This document shows positions 41,742 through 64,000 of a DNA stretch of 64,000 nt, piece by piece. The notes beneath the pieces were generated by a model. It did no database searches. It worked only from the letters and a program-made list of their open reading frames with translations, and was not told the DNA's origin. A program made the translations under genes and the position numbers. Source of the DNA: a virus (Duplodnaviria > Caudoviricetes). The DNA lies in the IMG/VR virus record IMGVR_UViG_3300028175_000001; one strand, given 5' to 3'. Every line of letters begins with the position of its first letter. Position 1 is the first letter of the stretch.

Positions 41742-41776
41742 ATTTACCTTTCGTATATCGGAATATTCGTTGTATA

Positions 41777-46000: not shown

Positions 46001-48650
46001 GGGTTGTCTCTATATCTTCATTATGTAATAAAGTAGTCCCATCCTTAAAAGAATTATCTAAATATGACTCTCCAGAACATTGAATTGAGATTGGCGATTT
46101 AACTATACCACATTTCTTATCATTAAAAATATTATTATTTAACCATAAATCATAAGTATCCCATTTTGCAGTTTTCAATTGTTTTTTAAAATAAGTTCTT
46201 CTAGTTTCGTCTGTGGAAAGTAAATAACAATGCGCTTCAGACATTCTATCTGTTACACCGAAAAATTCATAATTTTCATGTTCCCAATCAGGAATTCTTT
46301 TTCCGAAAGACATATAATATAAATTATGCTGATTCATATCATCTAACCGGTCCATAATTGATCTATGAACTTCGTGTACTGGTTTTATAAAAATAGCATC
46401 ACATTCACAAAATAAAACGGCATCAAAGTCTTCATTTAAATGTTCATTTATAGCAGATTTGTGAGCAGAAAAATTACCATAATGAGCAGGTGTTAATTTA
46501 TATTCGCCCGATTTCATTTGCACATCATTTGGTCTAGCACATGTTTTTTTCGGGGGAAAATTTTCATATAAAGGATTCACCATTTGCACATATGACCAAT
46601 CTGAATATTCAGATAATTTTTTAAGATGTGTTATTGATTTTTTTTCTCTTTCTGAATCCACATCAACAAGCATATGAACTATTTTTATTTTTGGACGTCT
46701 TATTGCCCACAAATTACCCAATTCGCCATTAGTTGTTACTTGAGAATCAGCAATAACTTGATATCCCAAACTTTCTAATCTCGTTATAAAATTAGTTGCA
46801 TGAAGTTTCATTTCACCCTCAACACCAAACGGATGTGCTTCCATAGAAAGTTTTCTCAATTTATATTTAAAAAAATCATCATGAATCACTGGTAATATGT
46901 CCCATTCTGCCCCTTCACAATCCAATTTTAACGCATCTATTCTATCAATACTATTATTTTTCATAAATTGTTCAAACGTAACACAATCAACAATTTCTTT
47001 TTTTATTACTCCCTGATTTTCTGTATTCTTTGCGCTATTATTAAAATTATCATAAAAAGAATTACATGAACTGGATCCAATAGTAATAAATTCTCTACTG
47101 TTATTATCAAAAGAAATTGCTAAATTGTGTTTTTCAATATTTCTATATTCTCCCAAATTTTTACATAAAATATCAAATGTTGTTTTAGTGGGTTCAATTG
47201 TGTGAATATGCGAAACTCCTTGATTTAAAGCATACATATCAAAAAAACCATAATGACCACCAATATCAATTACAGTATCCCCTTCTGTCAAATTTAATTT
47301 TTTATAATACTGTAATATCAAAGTTTCATAAAAAGTATACCAGGAAGAAGGATCGTCCGCTATTCCATGAAAATGTTTATTTTTTCCGAGAATTTTAATA
47401 TCAACTTCTGATTTAAGTGGAAATGTTTTTTCATATAAAAGATGATGATTATCTAACAAATTCACATCACTTAAATTAGAATAATAATCTTTAGGAGCAT
47501 CAAATATCTTTACTATAAACCCGTTAACTACATCTTTTCCGCAATGCGGCTGACACCACATTGAGTTTGTTAAAATGTGTGATCTATAGGCTAATAACCC
47601 AGTATCTATTTCATATAAGCACAACAATTTCTCATGAAAACATTCATATAAGCTTAAAAAATGAAAAGTTATTTTGGTATCTTCAATCGAACAACTTACA
47701 AGACGATCACTAATGTTCAGTAGTCTAGACATTTTAATTAAATTAATATTCAAATCATCAGAAAGCCAAGTAACTTTTTCGTCATATTTGTCAATATAAG
47801 TGTCAAGTTTATGTGCTAATACAGGTATATTCCAAGACAAAGCTTCTTTCACAACTAATGGATTCGTTTCTTTATCAAAACTAGTTCCCTTAGACGTAAA
47901 TAAAAATAAATCCATACATGAATAAAATTTTTCTACATCAGACCTTTCCCCCCAAACTATACAATTATCGGGCAAGTTTTTTGTTAAAGGTTCCCAATAT
48001 TCTTTAAAGTTTTCCGCAAGATTCCCTACAAAATGAAATTGTACGTCAGGCAAAAGTTTAGCGTATTCAATAATTTCCACTTGATTTTTTCTTGATGTCC
48101 ATAATCCAACATTTAATACATGTTTCAATGCAGGATCAACACCTAATTCTCTCAATGCAACATCTCTTTCTTTTTCTGATGTTTTTTTATCGACGGGATA
48201 CTCTATAACACATGCAGGAACATCTATTGATCTAAATTTTATTAGTTGATTATCACTACAAAATAAAAATTTATCTGGAAAAAATTTCTTTGACGAAGGA
48301 TCGAAGGAAGAATCATGAGATGTTTCAAAAATCAAATAATTTCTATTTTTCTTATAAATTTTTTCAGCTATTTTATCATCCACGAAAAATTCAGGCATTT
48401 CTTCAAAATGAATAATGTCGGGTTTTATTTTATCTAAATATGTTAAAATATCAGATTTATCATCGGACAAAGTTATTAACTGATCATTTAGAATGTTTAA
48501 TATTTTATCTTTTTGAACTCTATAAGACCCATAATCATTATACTCTATTACATAAATATCATTATCATTGTATAATAATTCGATTTTTTTAAGAAGATAT
48601 TGGGGGGCTCCGCCCGTAGATAAATGAGGAGTAATATATAAAATTTTCAT
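45987..48650 (-). CDS. Multi-domain protein: GT4 + FkbM-family methyltransferase + GT25-like domain
   Basis: MKILYITPHLSTGGAPQYL...NPLVVKEALSW; VIDIGGHYGFF...IDALKLDCEGAEWDIL; HYGNFSAH...LFCECDA. Confidence 0.8.
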   Translation of the reverse strand: MKILYITPHLSTGGAPQYLLKKIELLYNDNDIYVIEYNDYGSYRVQKDKILNILNDQLITLSDDKSDILTYLDKIKPDIIHFEEMPEFFVDDKIAEKIYKKNRNYLIFETSHDSSFDPSSKKFFPDKFLFCSDNQLIKFRSIDVPACVIEYPVDKKTSEKERDVALRELGVDPALKHVLNVGLWTSRKNQVEIIEYAKLLPDVQFHFVGNLAENFKEYWEPLTKNLPDNCIVWGERSDVEKFYSCMDLFLFTSKGTSFDKETNPLVVKEALSWNIPVLAHKLDTYIDKYDEKVTWLSDDLNINLIKMSRLLNISDRLVSCSIEDTKITFHFLSLYECFHEKLLCLYEIDTGLLAYRSHILTNSMWCQPHCGKDVVNGFIVKIFDAPKDYYSNLSDVNLLDNHHLLYEKTFPLKSEVDIKILGKNKHFHGIADDPSSWYTFYETLILQYYKKLNLTEGDTVIDIGGHYGFFDMYALNQGVSHIHTIEPTKTTFDILCKNLGEYRNIEKHNLAISFDNNSREFITIGSSSCNSFYDNFNNSAKNTENQGVIKKEIVDCVTFEQFMKNNSIDRIDALKLDCEGAEWDILPVIHDDFFKYKLRKLSMEAHPFGVEGEMKLHATNFITRLESLGYQVIADSQVTTNGELGNLWAIRRPKIKIVHMLVDVDSEREKKSITHLKKLSEYSDWSYVQMVNPLYENFPPKKTCARPNDVQMKSGEYKLTPAHYGNFSAHKSAINEHLNEDFDAVLFCECDAIFIKPVHEVHRSIMDRLDDMNQHNLYYMSFGKRIPDWEHENYEFFGVTDRMSEAHCYLLSTDETRRTYFKKQLKTAKWDTYDLWLNNNIFNDKKCGIVKSPISIQCSGESYLDNSFKDGTTLLHNEDIETTHEEF

Positions 48651-49717: not shown

Positions 49718-50530
49718 ATGATTACTCTTAACGAAGCATTTCATGCCTCTGATTACGAAACATGGTTAACATATTGGAGTCGATGCAAAGTCAATACAAT
49801 TTTCCATAAATATCCAGATTATACAGCAGAAGATAATCCTGTATTAGTACGATTTAGAGAAATTCCCGATGGCGAAGATGTAGAAATACCTCATCCAGAC
49901 ATTGAAGTAAAACAAATCGAAACTCATCTAGACACATATTGTTTCAAGACACTACTAAAAGCATTACCCGAAAATCACAGAAACAAAACTTTAGAGGGAA
50001 TACAACTACAATCAGCAAATTTTCATGACGCCATGGCTAAAAGAGAAAAAGATTTTGATGAATTTTTAGAATATAAACTAGCCGGTAATCTTAACATAGA
50101 AACTATTGATAACACAAAACCCATTTCATGGGAATCAATAAGAACTGCTTCAACAGAAGAATTGTTTCAAACAAAACTTGAAATATTTGAAACACAACCA
50201 GTTCAAGAAAGCGATAAAAAAGAATATCGTTCTAATATTAGAAAAGCATCATCAATTATTGAAGCAATGCACTGGTACTATTTAATAGTCAATGATATTG
50301 AAATGTCCACGTCAGAAAAATCAGAAGAAAAAATTCCCGAAAATATAGATATACTACTTGCTGATATTTCTTCAGAAACACTATTTAAATATAAATTACA
50401 GCTTTTCGAAAAAGAAGAAATTCAAAATAGCGAAAACAAAAAAGCTAGAAGCAAACTTAGAAAAGCAACTAATTTAATTGAACTATTTTCAGCTTATAAT
50501 GAAGTGATATTATTAGATAAAAAAGAATAA
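49718..50530 (+). CDS. Hypothetical protein with a duplicated ~45-aa helical repeat
   Basis: STEELFQTKLEIFE...RSNIRKASSIIEAM versus SSETLFKYKLQLFE...RSKLRKATNLIELF. Confidence 0.7.
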   Translation: MITLNEAFHASDYETWLTYWSRCKVNTIFHKYPDYTAEDNPVLVRFREIPDGEDVEIPHPDIEVKQIETHLDTYCFKTLLKALPENHRNKTLEGIQLQSANFHDAMAKREKDFDEFLEYKLAGNLNIETIDNTKPISWESIRTASTEELFQTKLEIFETQPVQESDKKEYRSNIRKASSIIEAMHWYYLIVNDIEMSTSEKSEEKIPENIDILLADISSETLFKYKLQLFEKEEIQNSENKKARSKLRKATNLIELFSAYNEVILLDKKE

Positions 50531-51159
50531 TCAATTTCTTCATTTTTAAAATGTACTATTTTAATATCATCATGAAACCCGTCCAAATAAACATATTCTC
50601 CTGGATACATTGCGTTTATTGAAGCAAGTTCTTTTAAATTTTTTTTATTACACATTCTAGTCACCCATGTTGATGGAAGATATTTCAATTTTAATTTTTT
50701 CTTTACTTGATCTTCTATGAAAAATTGTTCTCCATTAACTGGCCCTGTTGTTATTTTAAGGGTAATATAATATTGCGACCAATAATTAATATTGCCCATA
50801 AATTCATCATAAATGTATTTACAATCTTTCGGATAATACTTTTGAAATCCTCCGCATAATGAATAATTTTCATTCCAAGTATCTTTCCACCAAGATTTGG
50901 CTGTTAAAAATTCCCCTCTTTCTATAGGATAATCGATAGCTTTAGTGTAATCATTAATATAAAAAGTATCAATATCAATTACAAGAACCGGCTCATCAAT
51001 ATCCATATTCATGACTCGTAATTTATTCCATTGTAAATCTACTCCAGGCAATTCATCTCTAATCCATGTAACATTCGATATTTTTGAATTAATATAATCT
51101 TCAACTCTTTGATCATATTTGTCACGTACTCTAACTGCAAATACTTTTGTTTTATTCAT
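50494..51159 (-). CDS. GT-A (GT8-like) nucleotide-sugar transferase, paralog 1
   Basis: WNKL...VLVIDIDT (DxD), GEQFFI, IVHF. Confidence 0.6.
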   Translation of the reverse strand: MNKTKVFAVRVRDKYDQRVEDYINSKISNVTWIRDELPGVDLQWNKLRVMNMDIDEPVLVIDIDTFYINDYTKAIDYPIERGEFLTAKSWWKDTWNENYSLCGGFQKYYPKDCKYIYDEFMGNINYWSQYYITLKITTGPVNGEQFFIEDQVKKKLKLKYLPSTWVTRMCNKKNLKELASINAMYPGEYVYLDGFHDDIKIVHFKNEEIDYSFLSNNITSL

Positions 51160-51950
51160 TCAGATTTTTTAATCATATTAAAATAATTATAAACAACACG
51201 TTCTCTTGCAACTTCTCTATATTCCCATTCAATTTCGGGAATCCACAAACCAGCAGATGAAGCAGATTTTTCTAAAAACCAATGATGGTGATATAAAAAA
51301 ATTTTTGGATCTTTATATTGTTTTTTAACTCTTTCAGTTCCAGCATATTCATTATCTCTAAATCCTTCACCGGGAATGTTTACGTTCAATAAAAATTCCC
51401 TATTCCAAATAGTCGGTTGATGACATAACAAAAACCCCCCATCTTTTTTAGCCTTTAAAATTTTTTTATTTTGTATATAATGGTCTGTTTCTTCGTATTC
51501 ATCTAAAACATAAGGAGAAGTAAGTCGGTGTAATCTCAAACCATTCACATCATTGAATCGTACAAAATTTAATAATTTATTAAATAATATTGCATCAATT
51601 TGCTTAAATGGCCACTGGTCTTCTTGCATGTATAAAACATATTTTGTTTGAACCGAGTTTAAAGCAGTTATAAGTCTATCACTCCATCCTTCATCAATCT
51701 GTTTTGGTCCCCCATAAGTAGGCAACCAATCTCGTTCTTCGATTCCCATATATTTTTTACTTTTACCCGTTTTAATCTGAAGGATTCTAGGATCATTAAA
51801 GGGCAATTCTATTTCTTCATTACAAAAATATATAGGCCAATCTAAATCCAAAAATCCAAAATGATCAAACATAGTATACCAACCATCCCAAAAATGACTG
51901 TATTCATCACACGTATGAATTATAACACTAATATTATTGAGAGGGAGCAT
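51156..51950 (-). CDS. GT2-like glycosyltransferase (start probably at 51950 rather than 52028)
   Basis: ISVIIHTCDEY...WSDRLITALNSVQTKYVLYMQED, CHQPTIWNREFL. Confidence 0.6.
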   Translation of the reverse strand: MLPLNNISVIIHTCDEYSHFWDGWYTMFDHFGFLDLDWPIYFCNEEIELPFNDPRILQIKTGKSKKYMGIEERDWLPTYGGPKQIDEGWSDRLITALNSVQTKYVLYMQEDQWPFKQIDAILFNKLLNFVRFNDVNGLRLHRLTSPYVLDEYEETDHYIQNKKILKAKKDGGFLLCHQPTIWNREFLLNVNIPGEGFRDNEYAGTERVKKQYKDPKIFLYHHHWFLEKSASSAGLWIPEIEWEYREVARERVVYNYFNMIKKSE

Positions 51951-53025
51951 CGTTCCAAATATTACAAAGTAAAATACGTTCTTTTGTTTCTGGTTTAGTG
52001 AAATCATATTCTCTAAAGAATTTATCATTCACATAAATTGTTATATTTTCAAGATCATCTTCAGAAAAAAAATCTGTTCTGTAACCCCAATCAGCACAAG
52101 TAAAAGAAGAATAATGAACATTATTTCTAAAAATAGAACAATTTATTTCTCCTTTTGGGGGCATAGCAAAAAACCTATATCCCCGATTTGGTTCATACCA
52201 AGCAAGACAGATCCAGGGATATTCGGCATCAGTATAAATTTTTTGTTTTTCGAAACCCGTTCTTTGAACAGATGTTTCAAGATCTTTTATCTCAACATTT
52301 TCTTCAAAGGAATCTTCCTGCTTATTCAGGTAAGATATACCCAACACATAACCCAATAACTCTTCACCTATATGAAGACCATGATTAATCATCATCTGTT
52401 TAAGATGCTGATCAGAATACATACTCAATCTACGATATAAAAAATTTACATTACACGACATAATTAATGTCATAATCTGCCAATGTCTAATTTTATCCCC
52501 AACATAGTGTTCACCATCAGGCGCATTTAAATCTTCTGTTTCACGTTTATAAAATACTGCTTGTTTTCCTTGAGTTTCTATAATATCATAATTTTCTATT
52601 AATTCGTCATCAAATGGCAAAAATCCATCATAATCAAATAAATGGATTACTTTTTTATTAAGCAATTTCGCATATGTAACCCCTGCGAGTAATAATCGTA
52701 AAACTGCAAATATTGTATTATTTTTAAAAAATTCTCTACTTGCAATATTAAAAATAGGAGACACGTTACCTTCATCATCAAGTTCATAAGCATAATGAAT
52801 TAAATATCCTTTCAATTCAGGATCATCGACCAACATATTATCTTTATCATAAATTGCATAATCTACTAATTCCTGAGTGTCTTTGTCAAGAGGCAAATGA
52901 CTCGTAATCAAAACATCATACCCAAAAGATTTAAACTGTTTTATAAATTTATGACATACAGACTTTCTTTCTTCATCAGACAAATAAGCATGTATCAAAA
53001 TTATTTCATTTGTTTTGTCTATCAT
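51934..53025 (-). CDS. Hypothetical protein, possible GT-A fold
   Basis: HAYL...GYDVLITSHLP...VDYAIYDKDN; IHLFDYDG (DxD-like). Confidence 0.5.
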   Translation of the reverse strand: MIDKTNEIILIHAYLSDEERKSVCHKFIKQFKSFGYDVLITSHLPLDKDTQELVDYAIYDKDNMLVDDPELKGYLIHYAYELDDEGNVSPIFNIASREFFKNNTIFAVLRLLLAGVTYAKLLNKKVIHLFDYDGFLPFDDELIENYDIIETQGKQAVFYKRETEDLNAPDGEHYVGDKIRHWQIMTLIMSCNVNFLYRRLSMYSDQHLKQMMINHGLHIGEELLGYVLGISYLNKQEDSFEENVEIKDLETSVQRTGFEKQKIYTDAEYPWICLAWYEPNRGYRFFAMPPKGEINCSIFRNNVHYSSFTCADWGYRTDFFSEDDLENITIYVNDKFFREYDFTKPETKERILLCNIWNDAPSQ

Positions 53026-53030
53026 ATGTT

Positions 53031-53501
53031 TTAAATGTTATTTTGTTGCATTATCCACCCAACTAAAGAATATTTTATTCCTTTTAAAACAGGCTTTACT
53101 CTATGTTCTAATTTCGAATCAAACCTAAGACAATCTCCCACACTCAATTCTATGGAATCACTGTCTTTAATTTCAAAAGATCCTCCTCGATATTCAGCAT
53201 TTAAAGGTATAACACATGTTTCTATTCTTTTACAAGTTGACCGAGCAGTATCAAAATCGTTATGCCAATGATAATAATTTAACTTAGAATATTCTGAAAA
53301 CTGAAATACCATATTAGAACTATTAAATTTTTTTTCCAATTCAAAATCATTTAACCAAATAAAAACCTTAGATCTTCTTTCATCAGAAAATTCACTATTT
53401 ACAACTCTAGCAAAACGAACCTTTTTTCTACAAGATACGATAAGATCAAAACATTCTTCTTTTGTCAATAAGTTTCTAATAATCTGTATTTTTTTGTCCA
53501 T
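53031..53501 (-). CDS. 2OG-Fe(II) oxygenase (prolyl-4-hydroxylase-like)
   Basis: HWHND (HxD), YRGGSF, HRVKPVLKGIKYSLVGW. The start region overlaps the upstream gene, so the exact start is uncertain. Confidence 0.85.
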   Translation of the reverse strand: MDKKIQIIRNLLTKEECFDLIVSCRKKVRFARVVNSEFSDERRSKVFIWLNDFELEKKFNSSNMVFQFSEYSKLNYYHWHNDFDTARSTCKRIETCVIPLNAEYRGGSFEIKDSDSIELSVGDCLRFDSKLEHRVKPVLKGIKYSLVGWIMQQNNI

Positions 53502-54031
53502 TCTTCTGTTTTCATTGCAGGCGCAAAATCATGATTAAATAAACAAATTGAATGTTCCAATTCGTCTCTATTCCAAGGATAAGACCAACACACTTTATCA
53601 TAAATTTTATAATCTATTTCTCTGTAAATATATTCATCGATGCCTTTCCAATATTTTACTCTGCTATAATCTTCATCTTCATAAAATTTATCATAAATAT
53701 GAACATGATTTCCCTTCCACGACATTATTGAAGAGTTTAAAGGGGTATGAAGCGAATCTCTCCACCAGGCAGTAAGAAGAGTAAAATCGTCTTTAATTAA
53801 ATGAGATATGGGACCCTTAATAATTATATCTAAATCGAAATATAAATAATTTACATCATTAACACATTCTTTAAACATTTGCAATTTATCAAAAACAGCA
53901 CCTTCTCCATCTCTTATTATATAAACGTTTTCATATTTCAATTTTCCATGTTCACGAATCATATGAAGAATATTATCAACATACCACTCATCATATTTAT
54001 TTCCCGTACATACGAGAACAACGGTTACCAT
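53465..54031 (-). CDS. GT-A (GT8-like) transferase, paralog 2
   Basis: VLVCTGNKYDEWYV, DKLQMF, LYFDLDIII, NSSIMSW, GIDEYI. Confidence 0.65.
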   Translation of the reverse strand: MVTVVLVCTGNKYDEWYVDNILHMIREHGKLKYENVYIIRDGEGAVFDKLQMFKECVNDVNYLYFDLDIIIKGPISHLIKDDFTLLTAWWRDSLHTPLNSSIMSWKGNHVHIYDKFYEDEDYSRVKYWKGIDEYIYREIDYKIYDKVCWSYPWNRDELEHSICLFNHDFAPAMKTEEWTKKYRLLETY

Positions 54032-54879
54032 TTCCCTATCACCATAAATCTGTCATATAACGGTAAGGAGCGTTTTCCTTTATATAAAACATCTTTAATT
54101 TGATTTTTTTCAACCAACTCATTAACATCTTTTACACAATTTATATGATCATCTAACTCAAAATAATTATTTGATTGTATTGCTATAGTAGGTTTTATTG
54201 GATAATCTTTATAGCAGTCTTTCATTAAAGCAATATCAGCCATATGTTCTGAAGAAGTGTTTATTATTAATTGCCGTCTTCTCAATTCTGTACGTTCAAA
54301 AAAATCTCCAAATTGTGCAATTTTAAATTTTTCATCAAAGTGATTTTTATACTGTGCAAATATTTTATGACAATTTTCATCCAAATCATATAAATCAATT
54401 TGAGATATGTTGAAATTTTTCGACAACATTTCAATTAATGGATATCCAAACCACGAACCGATTATATCAATATGAAGATCCCCCGAATATTGTATTTTTT
54501 TTAGTTCTTGAGAAAGCCACAATTTAGATTCATATTGACCTTGAGATACGGAATCATCAAAATTATTAGAATACGACGGCAGATTATTATTAACCCACTG
54601 ATTAACCCAATAATATGGAGTTTCTCGATTATCATTTTCACACATAGAAATTTTTTCTTTATGTTCTCCAATAGTATCTCTAATCGAACCAATTTCTGTA
54701 TTGTGTTCTCCAATAGTATCTCTAATCGAACCAATTTCTGTATTGTGTTTTCCGATTTCTGTATTGTGTTCTCCAATAGTGTCTTTAATCAAACCAATTT
54801 GATCATTATAAGATCCTATTTCAATATTATGAAGACTTATATCGTTTTTATTTTTTCGCCAATTATAAATTTGTTCCAT
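54025..54879 (-). CDS. Class I SAM methyltransferase-like protein with an N-terminal heptad repeat (start probably at 54879)
   Basis: QYESKLWL, IDIIGSWFG, DLYDLD, INTSSEHM, QSNNY...HINC, YDRFMVIG. Confidence 0.65.
   Translation of the reverse strand: MEQIYNWRKNKNDISLHNIEIGSYNDQIGLIKDTIGEHNTEIGKHNTEIGSIRDTIGEHNTEIGSIRDTIGEHKEKISMCENDNRETPYYWVNQWVNNNLPSYSNNFDDSVSQGQYESKLWLSQELKKIQYSGDLHIDIIGSWFGYPLIEMLSKNFNISQIDLYDLDENCHKIFAQYKNHFDEKFKIAQFGDFFERTELRRRQLIINTSSEHMADIALMKDCYKDYPIKPTIAIQSNNYFELDDHINCVKDVNELVEKNQIKDVLYKGKRSLPLYDRFMVIGKW
54660..54820 (-). repeat. 21-nt-unit tandem repeat encoding IG-x5 heptads
   Basis: Perfect 42-nt duplication at 54662-54703 and 54704-54745 plus degenerate 21-nt units; protein IGSYNDQ IGLIKDT IGEHNTE IGKHNTE IGSIRDT IGEHNTE IGSIRDT IGEHKEK. 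Confidence 0.9.
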
Positions 54880-55282
54880 ATACACAATATTGTTTATATT
54901 TTTTATTTTTACATTGTATTTCGAATGAATCAAAAACTTCTGTTAATTCATTATCATCGACCAGTTTATTAATCGAACAAATAGGATTACAATCACCATT
55001 ATGTTCTTTATCATCACCTTTTAAAATGAAAATTCCTTTATGCATTCGACCCACAGGATATGTTTTTTCACAATTATAATGTAATACACAAGTATGCAAT
55101 TTAACATCATCAAACACAAAATCATTACACCTAACATTTGACATATATCTAAAATTAATATCATAATTTATATTATCAATTTCCATATCCAATCCCCTCA
55201 AAGTCTTGATAAACTTAAAATTGGGACAACATAATACAGATATTTTTTCGTGATTTACAGCCCAATAGAATAAGTTTTCCAT
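54863..55282 (-). CDS. Short methyltransferase-like paralog of the downstream gene
   Basis: LHYNCEKTY...ILKGDDKEHNGDCNPICSINKLVDDN parallels INTSSEHM...IQSNNYFELDDHINCVKDVNELVEKN. Confidence 0.45.
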   Translation of the reverse strand: MENLFYWAVNHEKISVLCCPNFKFIKTLRGLDMEIDNINYDINFRYMSNVRCNDFVFDDVKLHTCVLHYNCEKTYPVGRMHKGIFILKGDDKEHNGDCNPICSINKLVDDNELTEVFDSFEIQCKNKKYKQYCVYGTNL

Positions 55283-56061
55283 AATTCCTGTACAGGTGAT
55301 TCATGTAATTCATAGTGTTTGATATCTTTCATATTTTTATTATTGAAAAGATGAGATGTATTGAACAATGTCACTTTATTTTTTAATTGATATTGTTCTT
55401 TATTATAGTTTGAAAATAGGTCTTTTTCCCACAAATTCAATTTATTATTTCTATGATGCTGATAAAACAAATATTTGTCTAAACTTTTATATGTCCATTT
55501 TATCTTTTCCCAATTATTTTTAGTATAAGTTAAAAGCCAAGAAGCTGTCCCTTTATCCCATGCAACAAATGATGAGTTTGTATGACAAGACACTCCGCGA
55601 CCATAATTGAATAAACTAATTTTTTCATAATCATTCCAATAGTTCCATATAAATGTAATATTATGATGTTTTCTTGTTATCAATTCGGTTATATCTTCAT
55701 GAACCAATACATCTAAATCTATCCAAATATTTTTATCATATTCGTCATTATCAATAAGAAATAATTTTTCATATGTAAAAACTCTCTTTGTATCATATGG
55801 CCTAAGTTCTTGTATATCCTTTGTTTCGATTCTAGAAGATATTCCTCTAGAATCATCAGTATAGCACACAAAATGAAATGGAACTCGACAATATTTCAAC
55901 AATCCACCATACGTTCTATTAACATAATCAAAATTATATTTTGTACCCCACTTGAGACAATTAATTTTAATCTTATTCATAGATAAACAATGGCTCCATT
56001 TTTTTGAACGACTCATCAGGATCATCATATGGCACGTCTTTGACAAACCAAGATTTATCAA
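55255..56061 (-). CDS. GT-A (GT8-like) transferase, paralog 3 (true start likely MNKIKINC near 55980)
   Basis: CLKWGTKY...FVCYTDD, YEKLFL, IWIDLDVLV, NSSFVAW, LDKYL. Confidence 0.7.
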   Translation of the reverse strand: MINLGLSKTCHMMILMSRSKKWSHCLSMNKIKINCLKWGTKYNFDYVNRTYGGLLKYCRVPFHFVCYTDDSRGISSRIETKDIQELRPYDTKRVFTYEKLFLIDNDEYDKNIWIDLDVLVHEDITELITRKHHNITFIWNYWNDYEKISLFNYGRGVSCHTNSSFVAWDKGTASWLLTYTKNNWEKIKWTYKSLDKYLFYQHHRNNKLNLWEKDLFSNYNKEQYQLKNKVTLFNTSHLFNNKNMKDIKHYELHESPVQELWKTYSIGL

Positions 56062-56806
56062 TTTTATTATACATTATAACATCATAAACTAATTGGGCAA
56101 ACTTCATGTTTTGTTCTGATGTCATGTGATTTAATAAAAAAATATCACTGTTGGACGCTTGACCAACTATATGCCCAATGGGAATTTTCACATAATCAAA
56201 ATTACTCGAATCCAAAGAATCAAATATTAACGAATTCAATAATTTGGTAGAGGTTATATTAAAATTTTTATAATAACTTATATAATGATCTAAACTAAAA
56301 CAAGTGAAAACTATAAATCTAATATTTTTAAAGTTGTTAGCTATTAATCGCAAAAAAGAAATATTTTTTACATTTTCATACAAAAACATTGGTCCTAAAG
56401 ATTGTGCAATAATTTTAATTTCATTACCAAGTTTTAAAATACTTTCGAAGTTCTGAGACGTGTTCCCCGCAACTTTTTTCATGAAATGAGCATCTCCCGC
56501 ATAATCATCTTCTGCTATTTGAAAAATACCATAAGCCGAATCATTTTTATTTTTCAAAAACGAAAAGTTTAGTCTTTTTTGATCTGACAAAGCCACAAAT
56601 ACTGTATCATGCGGTTTAATAAGTTCTTCTTCTAATTGAAAAACAAGTTTTGTTAAGGCATCATTGGGACCCGATCCGGCCTTCCCAAAACCCCGCACGT
56701 TTTCCTTTTTCAATACTGACAATCGATGAGGCCAACAACATTTGTCTGTAACATTTTCACAAATACAAGCAAAACTATCTCCAAAAATATGAATTGTCAT
56801 TTCCAC
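55973..56806 (-). CDS. SGNH/GDSL-like hydrolase or acyltransferase
   Basis: N-terminal IFGDSF, GKAGSGPN, C-terminal NHMT...N..FA. Confidence 0.5.
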   Translation of the reverse strand: MEMTIHIFGDSFACICENVTDKCCWPHRLSVLKKENVRGFGKAGSGPNDALTKLVFQLEEELIKPHDTVFVALSDQKRLNFSFLKNKNDSAYGIFQIAEDDYAGDAHFMKKVAGNTSQNFESILKLGNEIKIIAQSLGPMFLYENVKNISFLRLIANNFKNIRFIVFTCFSLDHYISYYKNFNITSTKLLNSLIFDSLDSSNFDYVKIPIGHIVGQASNSDIFLLNHMTSEQNMKFAQLVYDVIMYNKIDKSWFVKDVPYDDPDESFKKMEPLFIYE

Positions 56807-57837
56807 TGATCTCCAAATGTATCAAACCCTGTACCGCATTTTTCTGCACACACTATTGATTTTCCCTGTGAACAAGAACTCATATTCCAAGACTGTTCTA
56901 TTTTTCTGAAAAAACTTCCTTCTATTATTTCATTTAATGGTTTATATAAAGCATTAATGTTTTTAATATCATCTAGATAATACCATATCTGGTTCTGTCC
57001 TAATTGTTCATATAATTTATATAATTTTCCAGCAGTCCAACAACAGGGGGTAACCAATCCCTCTGCTGAAATATAAATTTCTCTTGACTTTAAAGATTTA
57101 CATTCTATTCCAGTACTGTCTAAATAATTTTGAAAAGTGCCGTGATAGTTAAGCAGTTTATCATATTCGTTTACACTTTTATTTTGATGTTCTTTTTTGA
57201 TTGGAGGCTTAATTTCATTTCCTTTAATAGTTGTTTTTTTGAATATTTTATCATCTTTATAGCTTTGAACCCATCTACCAGTTTTTTTCTTTATAAAATC
57301 AAGACCGAATAATTTAGCCATACGTTCTGCTTCTTCCACTTGATGCTCATTGTGTTCAAATATCAAAAACACCCAAACACCTTTTCCGCCTGCTTGCGTA
57401 AACACATCCATTGAATTTTCAACTCGGGCCCAATCAACATTTACTCGATATAAATGATTCGTATCATCCAAACCATCTACCGAAAAAGACACTCTACCGT
57501 GATGTCCAAAAATTCCTGCAAGTCTTTTCCACCAATCATCTGATCGTCCTCCAGCATTTGTAGTCATATGAAGATATAAGTCTTTATTATTATATCGCAA
57601 CCATTCATATATGTCAAGGGAGTCTTTTGCCGCCAGGGGGTCTCCATGATTGCCACACATGAGAAAACTAGTCAATTGTTGTGCTAAACTAACATCGATA
57701 ATTTGTTTAAATTGATCAATAGAAATTTCAGCATTCTTTATGTGTGGATTATTGGTTCTATCACACATAGGACACATTGCTTGACATTTTTGTGTAGGCT
57801 CAAAATGTATATGTCTTATATCATTAAGTCTGTACAT
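56797..57837 (-). CDS. Radical SAM enzyme with a C-terminal SPASM/twitch-like domain
   Basis: KCQAMCPMC (CX3CX2C), GNHGDP, MTTNAG, SVDG; C-terminal PCC...C...CAEKC. Confidence 0.9.
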   Translation of the reverse strand: MYRLNDIRHIHFEPTQKCQAMCPMCDRTNNPHIKNAEISIDQFKQIIDVSLAQQLTSFLMCGNHGDPLAAKDSLDIYEWLRYNNKDLYLHMTTNAGGRSDDWWKRLAGIFGHHGRVSFSVDGLDDTNHLYRVNVDWARVENSMDVFTQAGGKGVWVFLIFEHNEHQVEEAERMAKLFGLDFIKKKTGRWVQSYKDDKIFKKTTIKGNEIKPPIKKEHQNKSVNEYDKLLNYHGTFQNYLDSTGIECKSLKSREIYISAEGLVTPCCWTAGKLYKLYEQLGQNQIWYYLDDIKNINALYKPLNEIIEGSFFRKIEQSWNMSSCSQGKSIVCAEKCGTGFDTFGDQWK

Positions 57838-58619
57838 AAATCTTTCGCTTTTTCTAAACAGCTATCAAATCTAGGAGAACTAAAGTGCCCCTGATTATTA
57901 ATCTCTTCATTGATATCTATATTTGTGGTATGTGCTATAGTATCAATATTCATTGCTCTAGATAAATGAGTCCACATTCCTTCTGTAGCAAAAATAAAAT
58001 CAGACATTTGTAATATTTCTACATTTCTAGAATAGTTAAAATCCTCTAAAGGAAAAAATGTTATTTCTGGAAACTTTCTAATCAAAAAGTCTATCTTCAT
58101 TCTTTGTTTTTTAGTTACTATATCTTGATTTTTATCATACACCAGATAACAAACTTTTTTTCTTTTTTCTCTAATATCAAAATCAATAGGCCAATACGAT
58201 CCATCAGTCCATATTTTATTGTACAGCATATTAAAAGTATTATTATAGTAATTACACCCTGTCGGAAGAGATATTTTTTTAAAATCTTTATCGTAAGTAT
58301 TCTCGTAGGTATTTTCAATCATTACATGAGCGTCTTGCCATGATATTTTTTTCTTTAAATGCACAGTTGTAATTTTATTTTTAGGTCTTTTAAACTGAAA
58401 AAAATCAATTATTTGATAAAAATCTTCACATAAAAGTTTCTTTGGCTTTGGATGAACGTCCAGTGATTCACACATATAAACGACACTATCACGTTCAAAA
58501 TAATCCATTACACTTAGAAATGCAGAAACATATACGAACCTATCTCCAAGCCCCCCGTCATTCGGGACAAAATAAAAAGTTAAAGGATCAGACAAAGAGG
58601 ATTTATGGAAAACATTCAT
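57816..58619 (-). CDS. GT-B-like glycosyltransferase (GT9/GT11-like motifs)
   Basis: GGLGDRF near the N-terminus; SDFIFATEGMWTHLSRAM near the C-terminus. Confidence 0.5.
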   Translation of the reverse strand: MNVFHKSSLSDPLTFYFVPNDGGLGDRFVYVSAFLSVMDYFERDSVVYMCESLDVHPKPKKLLCEDFYQIIDFFQFKRPKNKITTVHLKKKISWQDAHVMIENTYENTYDKDFKKISLPTGCNYYNNTFNMLYNKIWTDGSYWPIDFDIREKRKKVCYLVYDKNQDIVTKKQRMKIDFLIRKFPEITFFPLEDFNYSRNVEILQMSDFIFATEGMWTHLSRAMNIDTIAHTTNIDINEEINNQGHFSSPRFDSCLEKAKDLCTDLMI

Positions 58620-58797
58620 ATTTTTTTACATACCATTTAATAACATTTTTATAAAATTGCTGGCTATCATGATCTGCTTTGAATTGTTTTATGAAGGCAC
58701 TTGTTGCATTATGATTTGATAATATTATTGAAGAAATGTTTTGCAATTCTCGTAAAGAATAATCTTGTATGATATTATCGATTATTTTTTCGTTCAT
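58603..58797 (-). CDS. Small hypothetical protein
   Basis: 64-aa ORF filling the gap in a same-strand operon. Confidence 0.5.
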   Translation of the reverse strand: MNEKIIDNIIQDYSLRELQNISSIILSNHNATSAFIKQFKADHDSQQFYKNVIKWYVKKYECFP

Positions 58798-58813
58798 AAT
58801 TTTCTAAAACAAT

Positions 58814-59887
58814 TTATGAGCATTTCCATAAAGGCAATGAGCAATTTAATTTCTTTTTTGGAATTTTGCTATCTGCAGAACTCACACACGCATCCGTAAT
58901 ACAAGGTTTTACATCATTAAATAATTTAAATCCTGTTTCAATATTTCCTAAAGGAACATCTCTGCAAGAATAAGATCGCTTAATGCTCCCATCAGGCTCA
59001 CGAATAATACAACTACGATAGCCAGAAGAACACATCCATTCTTTGAAATTATTAAAATTAAACGCATTGAACCTTTCAGATTGATCAAGATACCATTCAT
59101 TTCCCTCATCATCATTCATCACAATTTCAAATTCTTGACGAATATTTTTGAGTTTTTTTGATTTAACTTCCATATTTGTAATCTGAGGCATTCCATTATG
59201 TAGTATATGTATTTGTTCTTTTGTATATCCATCAACAACAAACGTTGCGGTAGGATCACTCTGGGGTTTAAGCGTTACGTTTATACCTCGTTCATAAAAA
59301 TAAAGCAGATTTTTATATGTTTCATCAAAAGTTTCTGGTATCATAACAGAATTAATTGTGACACGCACACCATTACGTTGACAAAATTCAAGTTTATCAG
59401 CAAAACCCTCAAACTTGTCCAGATCAAGATATTCACGATGAAATGATGCGGTAATAGATGCTCTTGTAAATTTTTTAGCGGATTCGACATATCGTTCAAA
59501 CCATTTCATAGGCCGAGAACAATTTGATGTCATATGTATAGAAGAATAATTAGTATTATGTACATCATCAGAAAGATGCTTAAGTATGTCTAAATATCCT
59601 GGATGAAAAGTGGGTTCACCCCCAGATAAGCTAAAATGAAAACTATTAAACCCTCTCTGTCTCGCCTGTAATTTAATTTCATCGATTGTTTCAAGACACA
59701 ACTTAGTGGGCCTATGATCTTTCGTATTGCTTCTAGCATATGGCCAACAATACGAACATCTATAATTACAAAATCGACCTAACAGCCAGGACACTGTAAA
59801 TAAGTCAGTATCCAACATTTTCCAGGTCCCAACTCGTTCAATTCTATCCCAAGGTATCTTGGTAAAATCATATTCACTTAATTTCAT
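58814..59887 (-). CDS. Radical SAM enzyme
   Basis: FCNYRCSYC, SGGEPTFHP, MTSN, SFHRE; C-terminal Cys-rich region. Confidence 0.9.
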   Translation of the reverse strand: MKLSEYDFTKIPWDRIERVGTWKMLDTDLFTVSWLLGRFCNYRCSYCWPYARSNTKDHRPTKLCLETIDEIKLQARQRGFNSFHFSLSGGEPTFHPGYLDILKHLSDDVHNTNYSSIHMTSNCSRPMKWFERYVESAKKFTRASITASFHREYLDLDKFEGFADKLEFCQRNGVRVTINSVMIPETFDETYKNLLYFYERGINVTLKPQSDPTATFVVDGYTKEQIHILHNGMPQITNMEVKSKKLKNIRQEFEIVMNDDEGNEWYLDQSERFNAFNFNNFKEWMCSSGYRSCIIREPDGSIKRSYSCRDVPLGNIETGFKLFNDVKPCITDACVSSADSKIPKKKLNCSLPLWKCS

Positions 59888-61236
59888 TTAACTCTTACTA
59901 ATTCATTATTTTCAATTTGATAATTGTCATAATAATCATTAAAATTCTGACCCCAAATTTCATCTGATTTTTTTCGATATATCAAAAATCTATTAAAATT
60001 ATTATAAGAAAGTTTTGTGTTTTTCACATAATGCACAATATAGTCGAGCCATATTTTTGCTTGTCTCTCATATAATATATTACCCGTCATGTCTTTTTTT
60101 TCTATAAGTTCATAAGTTTTTTTAATATCGTGTTCTGTTTCTTCTGCAAAATCATACATGATCAAAGACGGATTTATATACTTCGGAGTTTGCACAATAG
60201 ACGCATTAAATTGTATTTCAGAATTTGGTTTATCAGTGGGAGGATATAAATCAAGTATTGAATCAAAAATATCATACAGATCTAGCATTTGATATATTGA
60301 AGTGGTTATTGATGCGCTTAAATAAGTATGTTTATTTTCTTTTTTAAAATTATATATATTTTGTTTCAGTTTTTCCCAATCACCACCATTTCTAAAATAA
60401 GGATACATTTTTCTTCCAGCATCAATAGATATGATTATAGACGAAGATTTAAAAGGAGCTAAAAGTTCTGATAATTTTAAAACGTCTAAATTAGGAGAAT
60501 TAAAATTTGAATGAAAACTAATATTCATATTTTTAGCATTAGGATGTTCGGCTAATCCTTTAAGCGTAGGAAAAAACTGTTTTTGATATAACAATTCTCC
60601 TCCAGAAAAATCAATATACTCCAAATAGGGAAAATTTTCATTCAAATCATCAATGATTTTCAAAGCATCTTCTGTCGAAAGGCTCATTTCATTTTTATCA
60701 TTCGGACCATGTCGATGTTCTGTTCCCAATAATTGTCTTAAATCATATTGATGCACTTCTTTATCAGGTTTATAATTTAATAGTTTAGTAATCCACCCAG
60801 AAGAATAAACCTTAGAACAATGCAAACATGCAAAATTACATGCTGTGCTAAATCTTAATTCTAAATGCCTTAATCCCTTAAAATCAGTTTTATGATTATT
60901 TTTATCATAACATTTTAATAATGGAGTGTTACAACTTTCGCGGTTCAGCTCAGTTGTACCCCCGTGGCTTTTATGGAACCAACCATCTATCGGCAAATAA
61001 TCTTTTCTCATAGAAATTAAATTATCTCGTTCCATATCTTCACATGTATCACAGCCTGACGGCCACTTGTCTTGATATAGAAGTTCTCTGAGATTTCTAA
61101 AATTTTGATGATTAAATATTTCAGAAGGCAAAACAGTTTCATGTGTATAGACCAATTGATCTGATTGTCTAGGACATGTTGTAATCACGCCATTCTTATA
61201 ATTTATTCCACCCAAAGCATAATAGCATTTTAACAT
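59884..61236 (-). CDS. Radical SAM enzyme with an N-terminal twitch-like Cys domain
   Basis: KCYY...TCP...CDTC; ACNFACLHC; SGGELL; SIDA. Confidence 0.9.
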   Translation of the reverse strand: MLKCYYALGGINYKNGVITTCPRQSDQLVYTHETVLPSEIFNHQNFRNLRELLYQDKWPSGCDTCEDMERDNLISMRKDYLPIDGWFHKSHGGTTELNRESCNTPLLKCYDKNNHKTDFKGLRHLELRFSTACNFACLHCSKVYSSGWITKLLNYKPDKEVHQYDLRQLLGTEHRHGPNDKNEMSLSTEDALKIIDDLNENFPYLEYIDFSGGELLYQKQFFPTLKGLAEHPNAKNMNISFHSNFNSPNLDVLKLSELLAPFKSSSIIISIDAGRKMYPYFRNGGDWEKLKQNIYNFKKENKHTYLSASITTSIYQMLDLYDIFDSILDLYPPTDKPNSEIQFNASIVQTPKYINPSLIMYDFAEETEHDIKKTYELIEKKDMTGNILYERQAKIWLDYIVHYVKNTKLSYNNFNRFLIYRKKSDEIWGQNFNDYYDNYQIENNELVRVK

Positions 61237-62174
61237 TAAAATTCTTCATCTATAAATACATCTTGATTAGATTGCTTGCACGTAGTCCAACATTTTTCCA
61301 TCGGATTTTTGTTCCAAGAGTTTATTACATAATCATATAATTCTCCCGTCATTACTTCATCAGGAGTATTATATTTTAAATTAATTTCAAGAGGCCCTCC
61401 CAATTCTTGATACTTTTTCATAAATCTAGTTTCTATTTCGTTACCACCATAGACCTGTAAATATTCAGAATTAAAAAAACAACATGGCAATAATGCTCCA
61501 GTATGACTTAAAAAAATTCTTTTTTGATTTCCATATTTACACACTATTTTATGTTCCATCTTTCTAGTTTTAGTCTTTGATTCTTTATTATCATTTCTAT
61601 GGGAATATATCAATCTGAAATTTTCAAATCCTTCTTCTTTTGCTATTCGTTTTGCATCATCTATCAAATGCTCATTATGTTCAAATGCTATAAATTGCCA
61701 AGTCGCATGTCCTCCTGCTTTTATAAATTCTTTCCAATTTTCTTGGATTTTTTTATAATTAGAACCTATTCTATATTTTTCTAATGATTTTTGATCAACC
61801 CCGTCGATACCAAAAAATATAGATATTCTTCTTTCTCCTAAATTTTTCCAAAATTTCTTAGTTTTGGTTGAACCATTAGTTGATATGTTTATATTTACAT
61901 CATCTAAATAATCTAAAATTTCTAATAATTCAGGATGCAATGTTGGTTCATCTATTGATCCACAAAAATTTATCAACTTGCAATTAGGAAAAGTTTTCTT
62001 TGTAATCCATTTTTTAATTTGTTTGAGTGATATTACATCTTTATTTAAAACACTGTTTACTTTGTTTCTTTTAATTTGACGAAAACATCCAGGACAATCA
62101 ATATTACAATATGATGTCAATTCTATATCAATCCACTCAATCGTGTCTCTAGACCACATAAACTCTCTTTCCAA
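61236..62174 (-). CDS. Radical SAM enzyme with a C-terminal SPASM/twitch-like domain
   Basis: YCNIDCPGC, GSIDEP, ISTNG, GIDG; VC...PCC...CWTTC. Confidence 0.9.
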   Translation of the reverse strand: MEREFMWSRDTIEWIDIELTSYCNIDCPGCFRQIKRNKVNSVLNKDVISLKQIKKWITKKTFPNCKLINFCGSIDEPTLHPELLEILDYLDDVNINISTNGSTKTKKFWKNLGERRISIFFGIDGVDQKSLEKYRIGSNYKKIQENWKEFIKAGGHATWQFIAFEHNEHLIDDAKRIAKEEGFENFRLIYSHRNDNKESKTKTRKMEHKIVCKYGNQKRIFLSHTGALLPCCFFNSEYLQVYGGNEIETRFMKKYQELGGPLEINLKYNTPDEVMTGELYDYVINSWNKNPMEKCWTTCKQSNQDVFIDEEF

Positions 62175-63397
62175 TTAGTATTTCTTGCTTTATCTAGATC
62201 ATTAAGATAATTTATCAATATATCGCCATTATCTGACCAACCATCTTTTTCAAACATATAATTTATATAAAAAGGCAAAACTTCTTTTGCTTTTTCGGTA
62301 AACATATATGAATCAATATTTTTTTTGATTTCATTTTTTAGTTCAATGGGCAAATTTTGTGCCGACAGGTGATACGGTTCTGTGACATGGTTTTCAAATA
62401 AAAATCTTATGTTTGGAAAATTTTCACGCAAAAAATCATATGTATCAATAAGATAAAACATACTCACATTACTACACGTCCATTGAAATGATACATCAAA
62501 ATTCGAAGGAAATTCTTTTAGATTATTACACCATTCATCCCACTTCAAACCATATCTAAAATACTCTCCAGCCCGTTCAACACAATCAACCGAAAGCCTA
62601 AGTCTCACTTTTTTAAAATTCTCCATATTTTCAAATTTTAAAGAACCATTACTCACATATGATATTTCCACATTCTTAGCATATGAACTTCCATTCAACC
62701 GCTTAATAAATTCATTATGTCGTTTATTCCAAAAACTTTCGCCGCCTAGAAAATTATATCTTTTTATTTGACTTATATCTAAATTATCCCAAAACGCACT
62801 ATCTTGCGATATCCAAGCATTAGTATCATACCCAGTTCTATGAATATAATTATATTTTTCTATTAGTGTTCTATCTTCGAGCCATCTCGAACTAACGGCA
62901 GGATTACAATGAATGCATTTAAAATTACAAATTGTACCTGTACGAACATCTATATGAAAAGGATGAACGTTTACATCACCATCATCCATTGTATGTGAGA
63001 TTAAATGTTCATATTTATCAAACCACATGTGATTTTCATCCATGCGTTTACTCACGCCGTTCAATTCTTCAACGTGCTTACATCTATTACAGTTTTCAGG
63101 CCATTCATTATTTAAAAATGATTTGCGTATTTCTTTAAAATATAAACCATTCCATTGATCTTCTATACTACTGTTATCTAATTTGTTAACCCATTTCAGA
63201 TATTCTTCGCCGAACTCCTTATTCAATGAATTAAAACTCCCCTCAGGAGGATTTTCAGATAGAGTGGGAATCCAATCAATATCTCGTTTACGAAACATTT
63301 GTTTCCATTGTTTTTCGATATCACTATAACCACACACTCTAGGTCTACCTGAAAGATTAGTTCCGAAATTAATCCAGGGTAAAATACAGGGCGTCAT
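62123..63397 (-). CDS. Radical SAM enzyme with an N-terminal twitch-like Cys domain
   Basis: PCILPW...VCG...CNRC; ICNFKCIHC; LGGES; VSNG; SVDC. Confidence 0.9.
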   Translation of the reverse strand: MTPCILPWINFGTNLSGRPRVCGYSDIEKQWKQMFRKRDIDWIPTLSENPPEGSFNSLNKEFGEEYLKWVNKLDNSSIEDQWNGLYFKEIRKSFLNNEWPENCNRCKHVEELNGVSKRMDENHMWFDKYEHLISHTMDDGDVNVHPFHIDVRTGTICNFKCIHCNPAVSSRWLEDRTLIEKYNYIHRTGYDTNAWISQDSAFWDNLDISQIKRYNFLGGESFWNKRHNEFIKRLNGSSYAKNVEISYVSNGSLKFENMENFKKVRLRLSVDCVERAGEYFRYGLKWDEWCNNLKEFPSNFDVSFQWTCSNVSMFYLIDTYDFLRENFPNIRFLFENHVTEPYHLSAQNLPIELKNEIKKNIDSYMFTEKAKEVLPFYINYMFEKDGWSDNGDILINYLNDLDKARNTNWKESLCGLETRLSGLI

Positions 63398-64000
63398 AAT
63401 GACCTCAATAACGGTCTAATCCCTACAGGCTTATCATCATCCAATGCCAAATGAATTGTTTTTGTGGGTTTTAAATTAAAATCTTCACAAATTTTAAAAT
63501 AGTTTTTTTCATATTTTCTCCAGAAATATTCTGGACCAAATTCCTCCATAAAACGAATTCCTAGATACATTAAAGGATGTTGATTCATATTAAAATTATT
63601 CATCAGTGTAATAGATCCTTCGGGTTCTTCACGAGCAAATCTTACACCAATTCTATTACCCCCAATACCAGCTTTACTCAAACTGACCGCAAATGTTTTA
63701 ATCGCAGGATGATCGAAATTAAATTCAATATCACGAATACACCCAATCCAAGCAGAATCAACATGCACCGATATGTTTAATTCATGACATTTATCTAAAA
63801 TTTCATACATATTTGGATGCATATCACCATAATAAGGAAACGGCATAGCAATTAACAATTCTTTATTTGAATTTAATGTATCTATTGTAGCATATTTTAT
63901 ATTATTATTCAACCTCCAATGGTATTTGTAATCTTTTTCAAAAGTTTGTATGTCTCCACATCTTTGATATAAATCATCAATAAAATGAGTACATCCTTGT
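63394..64000 (-). CDS. PLP-dependent (fold type I) enzyme, 5'-partial
   Basis: VHVDSAW (Asp) and VSLSKAG...RIG (Lys). The frame stays open from the window end (QGCTHFIDDLYQR...), so the TTG at 63912 is not the true start. Confidence 0.65.
   Translation of the reverse strand, partial: QGCTHFIDDLYQRCGDIQTFEKDYKYHWRLNNNIKYATIDTLNSNKELLIAMPFPYYGDMHPNMYEILDKCHELNISVHVDSAWIGCIRDIEFNFDHPAIKTFAVSLSKAGIGGNRIGVRFAREEPEGSITLMNNFNMNQHPLMYLGIRFMEEFGPEYFWRKYEKNYFKICEDFNLKPTKTIHLALDDDKPVGIRPLLRSL

Follow-up and report, generated by a model that had tools for sequence, protein, structure and literature searches.

A radical SAM and PLP gene island in an uncultured marine T4-like phage, with sugar or cyclitol tailoring as a candidate function

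The distal end of IMG/VR record IMGVR_UViG_3300028175_000001, a stretch of Caudoviricetes DNA analyzed here over its whole length of 64,000 nucleotides (the window), carries five clustered radical S-adenosylmethionine (rSAM) enzymes beside a pyridoxal 5'-phosphate (PLP) protein. Comparison with related loci identifies the five rSAMs as the downstream edge of an island of ~30–50 kb that holds ~18 rSAMs in this lineage; an initial annotation, made from the letters of the window alone, had reported five, which is accurate as an observation and too narrow as a description of scope. The source of the window is an uncultured marine T4-like myophage. There is about an even chance that the island encodes soluble tailoring of an activated sugar or cyclitol, including transamination, followed by cytoplasmic glycosyl transfer to an acceptor. 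Because the rSAMs lie near no characterized enzyme in sequence or structure, their function is argued from architecture and linkage, and from these we infer the substrate class, the reaction types, the order of steps and the acceptor.

Eight minus-strand open reading frames (ORFs) fill positions 56797–64000, joined by start/stop overlaps or separated by a 16-bp gap. They include five co-oriented rSAM ORFs within 56797–63397 and the PLP gene:

62123–63397, minus strand: rSAM with an N-terminal twitch domain (NF033640); C4-x17-C22...C103-x2-C106, then C157, C161 and C164
59884–61236, minus strand: second N-terminal-twitch rSAM (NF033640); C4, C21, C62 and C65
61236–62174, minus strand: rSAM with a C-terminal twitch/SPASM-like cysteine set, CX13GX4CC plus CX3C; the true start may lie downstream of the listed TTG
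56797–57837, minus strand: rSAM, paralogue of 61236–62174, with C-terminal CX13GX4CC plus CX3C
58814–59887, minus strand: rSAM with four conserved C-terminal cysteines, C286, C308, C329 and C334
63394–64000, minus strand: short fold-type I PLP protein, C-terminal 201 residues; the gene runs past the window end

Four of the rSAM ORFs exceed the Pfam Radical_SAM (PF04055) cut-off of 29.5 bits (56797–57837, 36.9; 58814–59887, 56.9; 59884–61236, 40.2; 61236–62174, 42.5). The fifth, 62123–63397, falls under that cut-off at 23.2 bits and instead passes NCBIfam NF033640 (N_Twi_rSAM, twitch domain-containing radical SAM protein; curated cut-off 170 bits) with 263.8 bits; 59884–61236, a distant paralogue at 25% identity, scores 208.6 bits, and both cover nearly the full model. 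The other three ORFs score ~40 bits and are non-members. All five proteins contain CX3CX2C, and the motif is invariant in homologues when each family is aligned with the related loci. Conservation extends to the auxiliary cysteines: C4, C22, C103 and C106 of the N-terminal twitch (N-twitch) family are invariant in all nine aligned sequences, and the C-terminal sets of 56797–57837, 61236–62174 and 58814–59887 are likewise conserved. No window rSAM matches the SPASM model PF13186, which is matched weakly by paralogues in relatives. These data agree with the initial annotation on the positions of the enzymes, the intact CX3CX2C and auxiliary cysteines, and the division into N-terminal twitch and C-terminal SPASM/twitch-like architectures, the latter without a PF13186 match. 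Ratios of nonsynonymous to synonymous substitution (dN/dS) of 0.07–0.28 for the rSAM and PLP genes, at synonymous divergence near saturation, indicate purifying selection.

Membership in NF033640 names an architecture, not a reaction, and no characterized member was found among solved structures or reviewed Swiss-Prot proteins. The N-twitch family profile matches residues 169–239 of BtrN (E 1.8e-4), which we take to be the BtrN twitch domain; the four-cysteine spacing C-x17-C...C-x2-C agrees with that of BtrN as well. The resemblance to BtrN-type dehydrogenases is confined to this twitch match, with the domain order permuted and no full-length similarity. An AlphaFold2 (AF2) model of 62123–63397 with a predicted local distance difference test (pLDDT) score of 88.6 had no close structure in the PDB or among Swiss-Prot structures, with template modeling (TM) scores of 0.35 or less throughout. 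Sequence searches of solved structures with each rSAM gave generic or insignificant matches only; the generic core matches include TigE, SkfB, EpeE, CteB, anSME and PqqE, and a profile search matched TigE through the rSAM core only. The best weak matches of 58814–59887 were the cores of viperin and MoaA, far under cut-offs. Against models for QueE, NrdG and MoaA, the window rSAMs score 16–41 bits versus cut-offs of 131–325 bits, and no partner genes of those pathways occur in the window. The suggestion that this is an uncharacterized phage biosynthetic gene set, distinct from housekeeping rSAM families, is borne out. A scan of bacterial genomes for the N-twitch family returned one mis-binned phage contig and weak matches in metagenome-assembled genomes (MAGs) of Bdellovibrionales and Chitinophagales; the single bacterial context inspected was uninformative.

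The ORF at 63394–64000 appears to be a credible but compact PLP enzyme, as first annotated. Full-length homologues are 276–291 aa long and 65–88% identical, and occur in at least 120 metagenomic clusters of 556 hits. Its AF2 model (pLDDT 86.5) matches the fold-type I proteins CobD, HisC, C–S lyases and NifS in Foldseek (E ~1e-8, TM ~0.6). In the numbering of related locus L001, D158, K186 (within S-L-S-K) and R193 do not vary among homologues and line up with the residues that bind PLP in AvtA-type aminotransferases. The protein is ~100 residues shorter than typical class I/II aminotransferases and has no Pfam match above threshold.

Linkage of the PLP gene to the N-twitch rSAM is close. Both genes are found in all nine related loci and adjoin, co-oriented or divergent, in eight; in locus L008 two genes lie between them. 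The window lineage has the PLP gene co-oriented with the rSAM and overlapping its start by 4 bp. On the contigs of L004, L006, L008 and L010 (137–363 kb), which are more distant relatives, the PLP gene, around position 10000 of each locus, is divergent from the rSAM run. Prediction of a complex between the two proteins gave a score of 0.00 without controls, which speaks neither for nor against binding.

The extent of the island emerges from a comparison set of three IMG/VR relatives and several long metagenomic contigs with the same genes. Gene-family maps show 7–13 CX3CX2C ORFs in every related locus. The closest relative (N-twitch protein 77% identical) has 18 such ORFs in ~28 kb, and a 161-kb contig collinear with window positions 36–64 kb gives 16 matches to PF04055, with 13 falling in its first 24 kb. 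This contig (L011, also G001:C1; PAAV01000055.1), whose proteins are 48–90% identical to those of the window, is filed under a 'Chloroflexota' MAG and almost certainly represents phage DNA that was binned with a bacterial genome. It carries a second group of three rSAM genes, far from the island, at G001:C1:102701-108043. At its upstream edge, the island of the closest relative shows T4 RNase H, a PF00483 NTP_transferase (sugar-phosphate nucleotidyltransferase), a nitroreductase, a carbamoyltransferase, an AMP-binding fragment and PP-loop proteins; TauD also lies in or at the edge of this island. Some 20 further island proteins of relatives mostly had no match in Pfam.

Within the window, the remainder of the island and its flank comprise:

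58603–58797, minus strand: conserved 64-aa protein, 42–75% identical in L001 and L006, also in L010 and L011
57816–58619, minus strand: GT9-like (heptosyltransferase-like) protein of 267 aa, a weak assignment from motifs and an atlas lead
55973–56806, minus strand: possible SGNH/GDSL-type hydrolase or acyltransferase, from an N-terminal F-G-D-S motif only
50494–56061, minus strand: run of soluble tailoring genes assigned by family matches, also holding unassigned genes
55255–56061, 53465–54031 and 50494–51159, minus strand: GT-A-like proteins (phrog_1962 glycosyltransferase, E 1e-5 and 1.7e-4), with homologues in Pelagibacter phage Mosig EXVC030M
54025–54933, minus strand: methyltransferase-like protein with N-terminal repeats, homologue of the methyltransferase Mosig_00090
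53031–53501, minus strand: prolyl-hydroxylase-type 2-oxoglutarate (2OG)-Fe(II) oxygenase (PF13640, E 1e-12)
42581–48650, minus strand: two large soluble multi-domain glycosyltransferases (GTs), one of 1139 aa (GT2 + GT4/GT1 + GT9) and one of 887 aa (GT1 + FkbM methyltransferase)
40854–42367, minus strand: homologues of T4 gp32 and gp59, flanking the island

A single strand thus carries, in a span of 22 kb, at least six GT domains or proteins, a methyltransferase-like protein, the GT–FkbM fusion and the 2OG oxygenase. The two large GTs have one marginal hydrophobic segment only, and a hydropathy scan of the island and its relatives found no convincing transmembrane protein; the pathway therefore looks cytoplasmic, without a flippase, polymerase or exporter of its own. 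Family matches bear out the adjacent GTs and methyltransferases of the initial annotation, and its heptosyltransferase stands as a weak GT9-like assignment. For the latter (57816–58619), an atlas feature search placed GT9-bearing clusters among the look-alikes, with PF01075 on 32% of members, and its N-terminal GLGD and C-terminal T-E-G-x-W-T-H-L motifs resemble those of GT9; there was no Pfam match, and dN/dS is 0.63. The protein at 55973–56806 had no family match, and a related family likewise begins F-G-D-S-Y. Ahead of its catalytic domain, the methyltransferase-like protein at 54025–54933 carries about six tandem units of 7–14 residues (of the type I-G-E-H-N-T-E-I-G-S-I-R-D-T), which are conserved in L003, L006, L010, L011 and Mosig_00090. 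Between it and the GT-A-like gene at 55255–56061, on the minus strand at 54863–55282, is a 139-aa protein with nine cysteines, 44% identical in L003 and without a family match; it could be a small iron–sulfur or zinc protein, or a substrate.

A pathway of sugar or cyclitol tailoring might run as follows. Twitch-type rSAMs would abstract hydrogen from unactivated sugar carbons, and the possible outcomes include conversion of a secondary alcohol into a ketone (the reaction of BtrN), epimerization, deoxygenation and C-methylation. The PLP protein would aminate a keto intermediate or, less probably, act jointly with the N-twitch rSAM in an aminomutase-type step. Neighboring enzymes may then add methyl, carbamoyl, acyl or amidino groups, and the island's own cytoplasmic GTs would attach the product to an acceptor. 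A comparable system is 2-deoxystreptamine biosynthesis, in which the twitch rSAM dehydrogenase BtrN is followed by the PLP aminotransferase BtrS. The window pair resembles BtrN and BtrS in its twitch auxiliary cluster, in the combination of an rSAM with a fold-type I PLP enzyme, and in having no recognition element of the kind used for ribosomally synthesized peptides with post-translational modifications (RiPPs). However, the twitch of BtrN is C-terminal to the rSAM core, whereas that of the window enzymes is N-terminal, and BtrS-type enzymes are ~100 residues longer than the window PLP protein and belong to another subfamily.

A sugar or cyclitol substrate is favored because GTs are dense and accompanied by nucleotidyltransferase, carbamoyltransferase and pentein proteins among the relatives; because the homologous module of phage Mosig includes an annotated sugar aminotransferase and an epimerase; and because RiPP recognition elements and precursors are absent while a BtrN-like twitch stands beside a PLP enzyme. 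Several observations weigh the other way. No window rSAM is close to a characterized sugar-acting rSAM, the PDB and Swiss-Prot matches covering the generic core only, and characterized SPASM/twitch enzymes mostly act on peptides or proteins. Neither a nucleotide-sugar dehydratase nor an epimerase nor a DegT aminotransferase was found inside the window, and the GT9-like and SGNH-like assignments are based on motifs together with a weak lead from the atlas search. Finally, a position beside replication genes would fit a DNA-related role equally.

That position, between T4 RNase H (rnh) and the gp59/gp32 replication genes rather than among tail-fiber genes, also means that late, virion-linked co-expression is not to be assumed. 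The initial annotation had proposed unusual sugars for a virion glycan coat; sugar tailoring is the part best supported by context, and the coat is not supported by an island beside replication genes. As to the chemistry, its preferred model is reasonable; as to the target, it is conjectural. Late promoters are no guide to expression class: the T4-type late-promoter-like sequence TATAAATA is not enriched overall (11 found versus 15 expected), and none lies on the island coding strand within the window. Copies do stand directly upstream of a baseplate wedge gene (15467–15474, minus strand) and of the ORF at 2659–3009 (2646–2653, plus strand).

A more ambitious form of the sugar or cyclitol hypothesis would make the PLP protein and the adjoining N-twitch rSAM a new two-enzyme amination or aminomutase-like unit, with ~18 rSAMs iteratively building a heavily aminated, guanidinylated sugar or cyclitol, either as a new glycan of the viral particle or as a phage-made compound resembling an aminoglycoside; the carrier would belong to one of the surface ocean's most abundant phage groups. 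We regard this as speculative and unlikely.

Islands of this kind are not unprecedented: related gene sets have been described in Campylobacter phages CP220 and CPt10 (2010), in pelagimyophages (2020) and in cyanophage S-SCSM2R (2025). A nucleotide search of isolate phages with positions 56001–64000 found no match. When isolate phages were searched by tblastn with the rSAM and PLP proteins, there was no match for the PLP protein, and those for the rSAMs were confined to CP220/F379, Mosig, RsoM2USA, two records of uncultured phages and two Vibrio phages. Ralstonia phage RsoM2USA has a single weak rSAM homologue in common with the window.

CP220 and CPt10 resemble the window phage in being T4-like and in clustering rSAMs with GT-A genes and a pentein/amidinotransferase. 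They encode 11 and 12 rSAMs, respectively, and contain an interchangeable module of five rSAMs and an amidinotransferase to which no function was assigned (Timms et al., 2010; PMC2853527). The CP220 region includes six rSAMs, the pentein/amidinotransferase, two GT-A genes and a PAP2 phosphatase. Its gp080, gp083 and gp084 are true homologues of the window rSAMs 61236–62174 and 56797–57837, with gp084 28.6% identical to the former over 96% of its length (E 2e-22). The window shares with this type of module the homologous rSAMs and GT-A-like genes; homologues of the CP220 pentein protein (gp086) lie inside the islands of relatives L001, L006 and L010, and none was found in the window. However, neither an N-twitch (NF033640) rSAM nor a homologue of the short PLP protein is present in the inspected stretch of CP220, and the module is much smaller, adjoins gp5/PAAR baseplate genes and belongs to a phage with a microaerophilic host.

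Mosig, which like the window phage is marine, T4-like and low in guanine plus cytosine (G+C), has a comparable cluster (Mosig_00072 to Mosig_00096). It contains counterparts of the short PLP protein (Mosig_00079), the 56797/61236-type rSAM family (Mosig_00084 for 61236–62174, which in tblastn matches a 'MoaA-like' gene of Mosig), the methyltransferase (Mosig_00090) and two GT-A-like proteins (Mosig_00092 and Mosig_00094), as well as of the TauD, carbamoyltransferase and nitroreductase proteins of the relatives. Annotations in its record include an ArnB/DegT sugar aminotransferase, an epimerase, a carbamoyltransferase and methyltransferases. It differs in having three rSAMs only and no N-twitch enzyme, and its ArnB/DegT aminotransferase and epimerase were not seen in the window. 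Host-recognition clusters of pelagimyophages hold radical SAM cassettes between VrlC and gp14 (Zaragoza-Solas, 2020; PMC7029224), a different position from the rnh–gp59 interval of the window island, and the likeness is one of description. The cultured marine T4-like cyanophage S-SCSM2R carries a trio of fold-type I PLP enzyme, inosamine-type amidinotransferase and rSAM, termed 'antibiotic synthesis genes' (2025; PMC12801897); with one rSAM versus ~18 in the window lineage, it is likened by gene types, not by homology. A literature search found no paper naming the product of such islands.

Clear hallmarks of membrane assembly, RiPP recognition and DNA modification are absent from the island. 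The first of the other explanations, unlikely yet still serious because this branch of the superfamily is mostly known from peptide maturases, holds that the rSAMs modify a phage (virion) or host protein in RiPP-like or anSME-like fashion, through cross-links, epimerization or formylglycine-type oxidation, and that the GTs glycosylate the same protein. Most SPASM/twitch enzymes mature peptides or proteins, and the best generic matches include those listed above (TigE to PqqE); additionally, the GT9 domain of the 1139-aa GT has a faint match (E 0.0048) to TibC, a protein heptosyltransferase, and a prolyl-hydroxylase-type oxygenase is present. The conserved 64-aa gene and the 139-aa cysteine-rich gene would be further points in its favor. 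However, the five rSAMs lack any N-terminal extension suited to a RiPP recognition element, the motif beginning at residues 18–47 or following the twitch, so that the arrangement would accommodate at most a recognition domain of distant or unusual type. Nor are there intergenic gaps in which precursors might be hidden, and the number and diversity of rSAMs vary among relatives with no matching substrate gene visible.

The 64-aa ORF at 58603–58797, the one precursor peptide candidate of the initial annotation, does not behave as such. Conservation covers most of the protein and lapses only in the last few residues, so that a hypervariable core is missing; its dN/dS of 0.08–0.22 points to purifying selection. 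The gene recurs with rSAM genes in the related loci, but its neighbors differ from one locus to another. The protein has no Pfam or PHROG match and reads as mostly helical. Its H-D-S motif was also considered as that of an acyl or peptidyl carrier, an idea rejected because only ~19 residues follow the serine.

Production of a free small molecule of aminoglycoside/aminocyclitol type, or another secondary metabolite, acting on the host or on competitors, is improbable on present evidence. The combination of rSAM, PLP aminotransferase, amidinotransferase and carbamoyltransferase follows the logic of the 2-deoxystreptamine and streptidine pathways, the gp086-type pentein homologues occur in relatives, and cytoplasmic synthesis would require no membrane or export genes; the term chosen by the S-SCSM2R authors for a similar trio points the same way (PMC12801897). 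Against this stand the GT domains, at least six in number and including giant multi-domain enzymes typical of polysaccharide assembly. Moreover, family and hydropathy scans revealed no scaffold synthase (inositol-phosphate or 2-deoxy-scyllo-inosose synthase), resistance gene or exporter, and the window contains no amidinotransferase.

Hypermodification of phage DNA, whether complex base modification or glycosylation, is also improbable. It would suit an island of wholly soluble proteins between RNase H and gp59/gp32, and QueC-like PP-loop proteins in the relatives and the full modification of CP220 DNA with a 7-deazaguanine are compatible with it. The initial annotation had drawn an analogy with phage thymidine hypermodification, in which rSAM and PLP enzymes act together (PMC5889632). 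Pathways of this kind combine a dUMP hydroxymethylase, a 5-hmdU DNA kinase and aGPT-Pplase with rSAM and PLP enzymes homologous to those of ViI or SP10. The analogy finds no support: no ThyA/hydroxymethylase (PF00303) homologue was found in the assembly holding the 161-kb relative, and the rSAM and PLP tblastn searches had no matches in ViI- or SP10-type phages, so that neither feature expected of a pathway of the 5-(2-aminoethoxy)methyl-2'-deoxyuridine (5-NeOmdU) type was found, the window's own full genome lying outside the search. A TGT/DpdA homologue is likewise lacking on the 161-kb contig, an incomplete sequence in synteny with the window, and the GT families (GT2, GT4, GT9 and small GT-A) and FkbM are of polysaccharide-synthesis types. 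Auxiliary metabolic genes, strengthening the metabolism of the host or its supply of cofactors as proposed for CP220 (Timms et al., 2010; PMC2853527), are hardly plausible here: housekeeping rSAM families do match weakly, but every such model falls far under its cut-off, no matching pathway genes are seen, and tight linkage to GTs and tailoring enzymes is unlike cofactor pathways.

The assignment of the window to a T4-like myophage follows from PHROGs family matches of its baseplate wedge, hub and tube-cap proteins; the wedge protein has relatives in an Ochrobactrum phage and in cyanomyophages at ~33% identity, and G+C is ~30%. A 2287-aa protein matches phrog_358, a family of unassigned function, and is probably a VrlC-type baseplate protein, judging by size and position. 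Following the baseplate genes, a 700-aa protein at 38701–40803 (plus strand) has five hydrophobic segments ~70 residues apart and is 48% identical in the collinear relative versus 68–90% for its neighbors, making it a candidate fast-evolving receptor-binding or fiber protein. Between baseplate genes at 36174–36605 (plus strand) is a protein with an endonuclease domain of TnsA-like type (PF08722, E 2e-21), 78% identical in the 161-kb relative, possibly a homing-type endonuclease.

At least 14 metagenome runs of marine or seawater origin, drawn from more than 10 studies, contain the exact 7.2-kb stretch, and four metatranscriptome libraries (three studies) contain near-identical contigs spanning 22–29 of the 30 bins of window positions 50000–64000. 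The phage is taken to be abundant in the ocean because of this identical DNA and these near-identical contigs. The island is possibly expressed; the metatranscriptome data consist of contigs only, in which DNA may have been carried over, and therefore are no proof of transcription, strand or timing.

An abundant ocean phage thus devotes ~30–50 kb and dozens of iron–sulfur clusters to this chemistry, in oxic and often iron-scarce waters. The same set of enzymes turns up again in jumbo phages of fresh water and the sea, in Campylobacter phages and in predatory bacteria. The identity of the product would explain a widespread phage trait, be it particle decoration, a change of the host surface, a small molecule or DNA protection, and would probably add new radical SAM reactions. 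Small versions of the island in the cultured carriers Mosig, CP220 and S-SCSM2R make the question testable.

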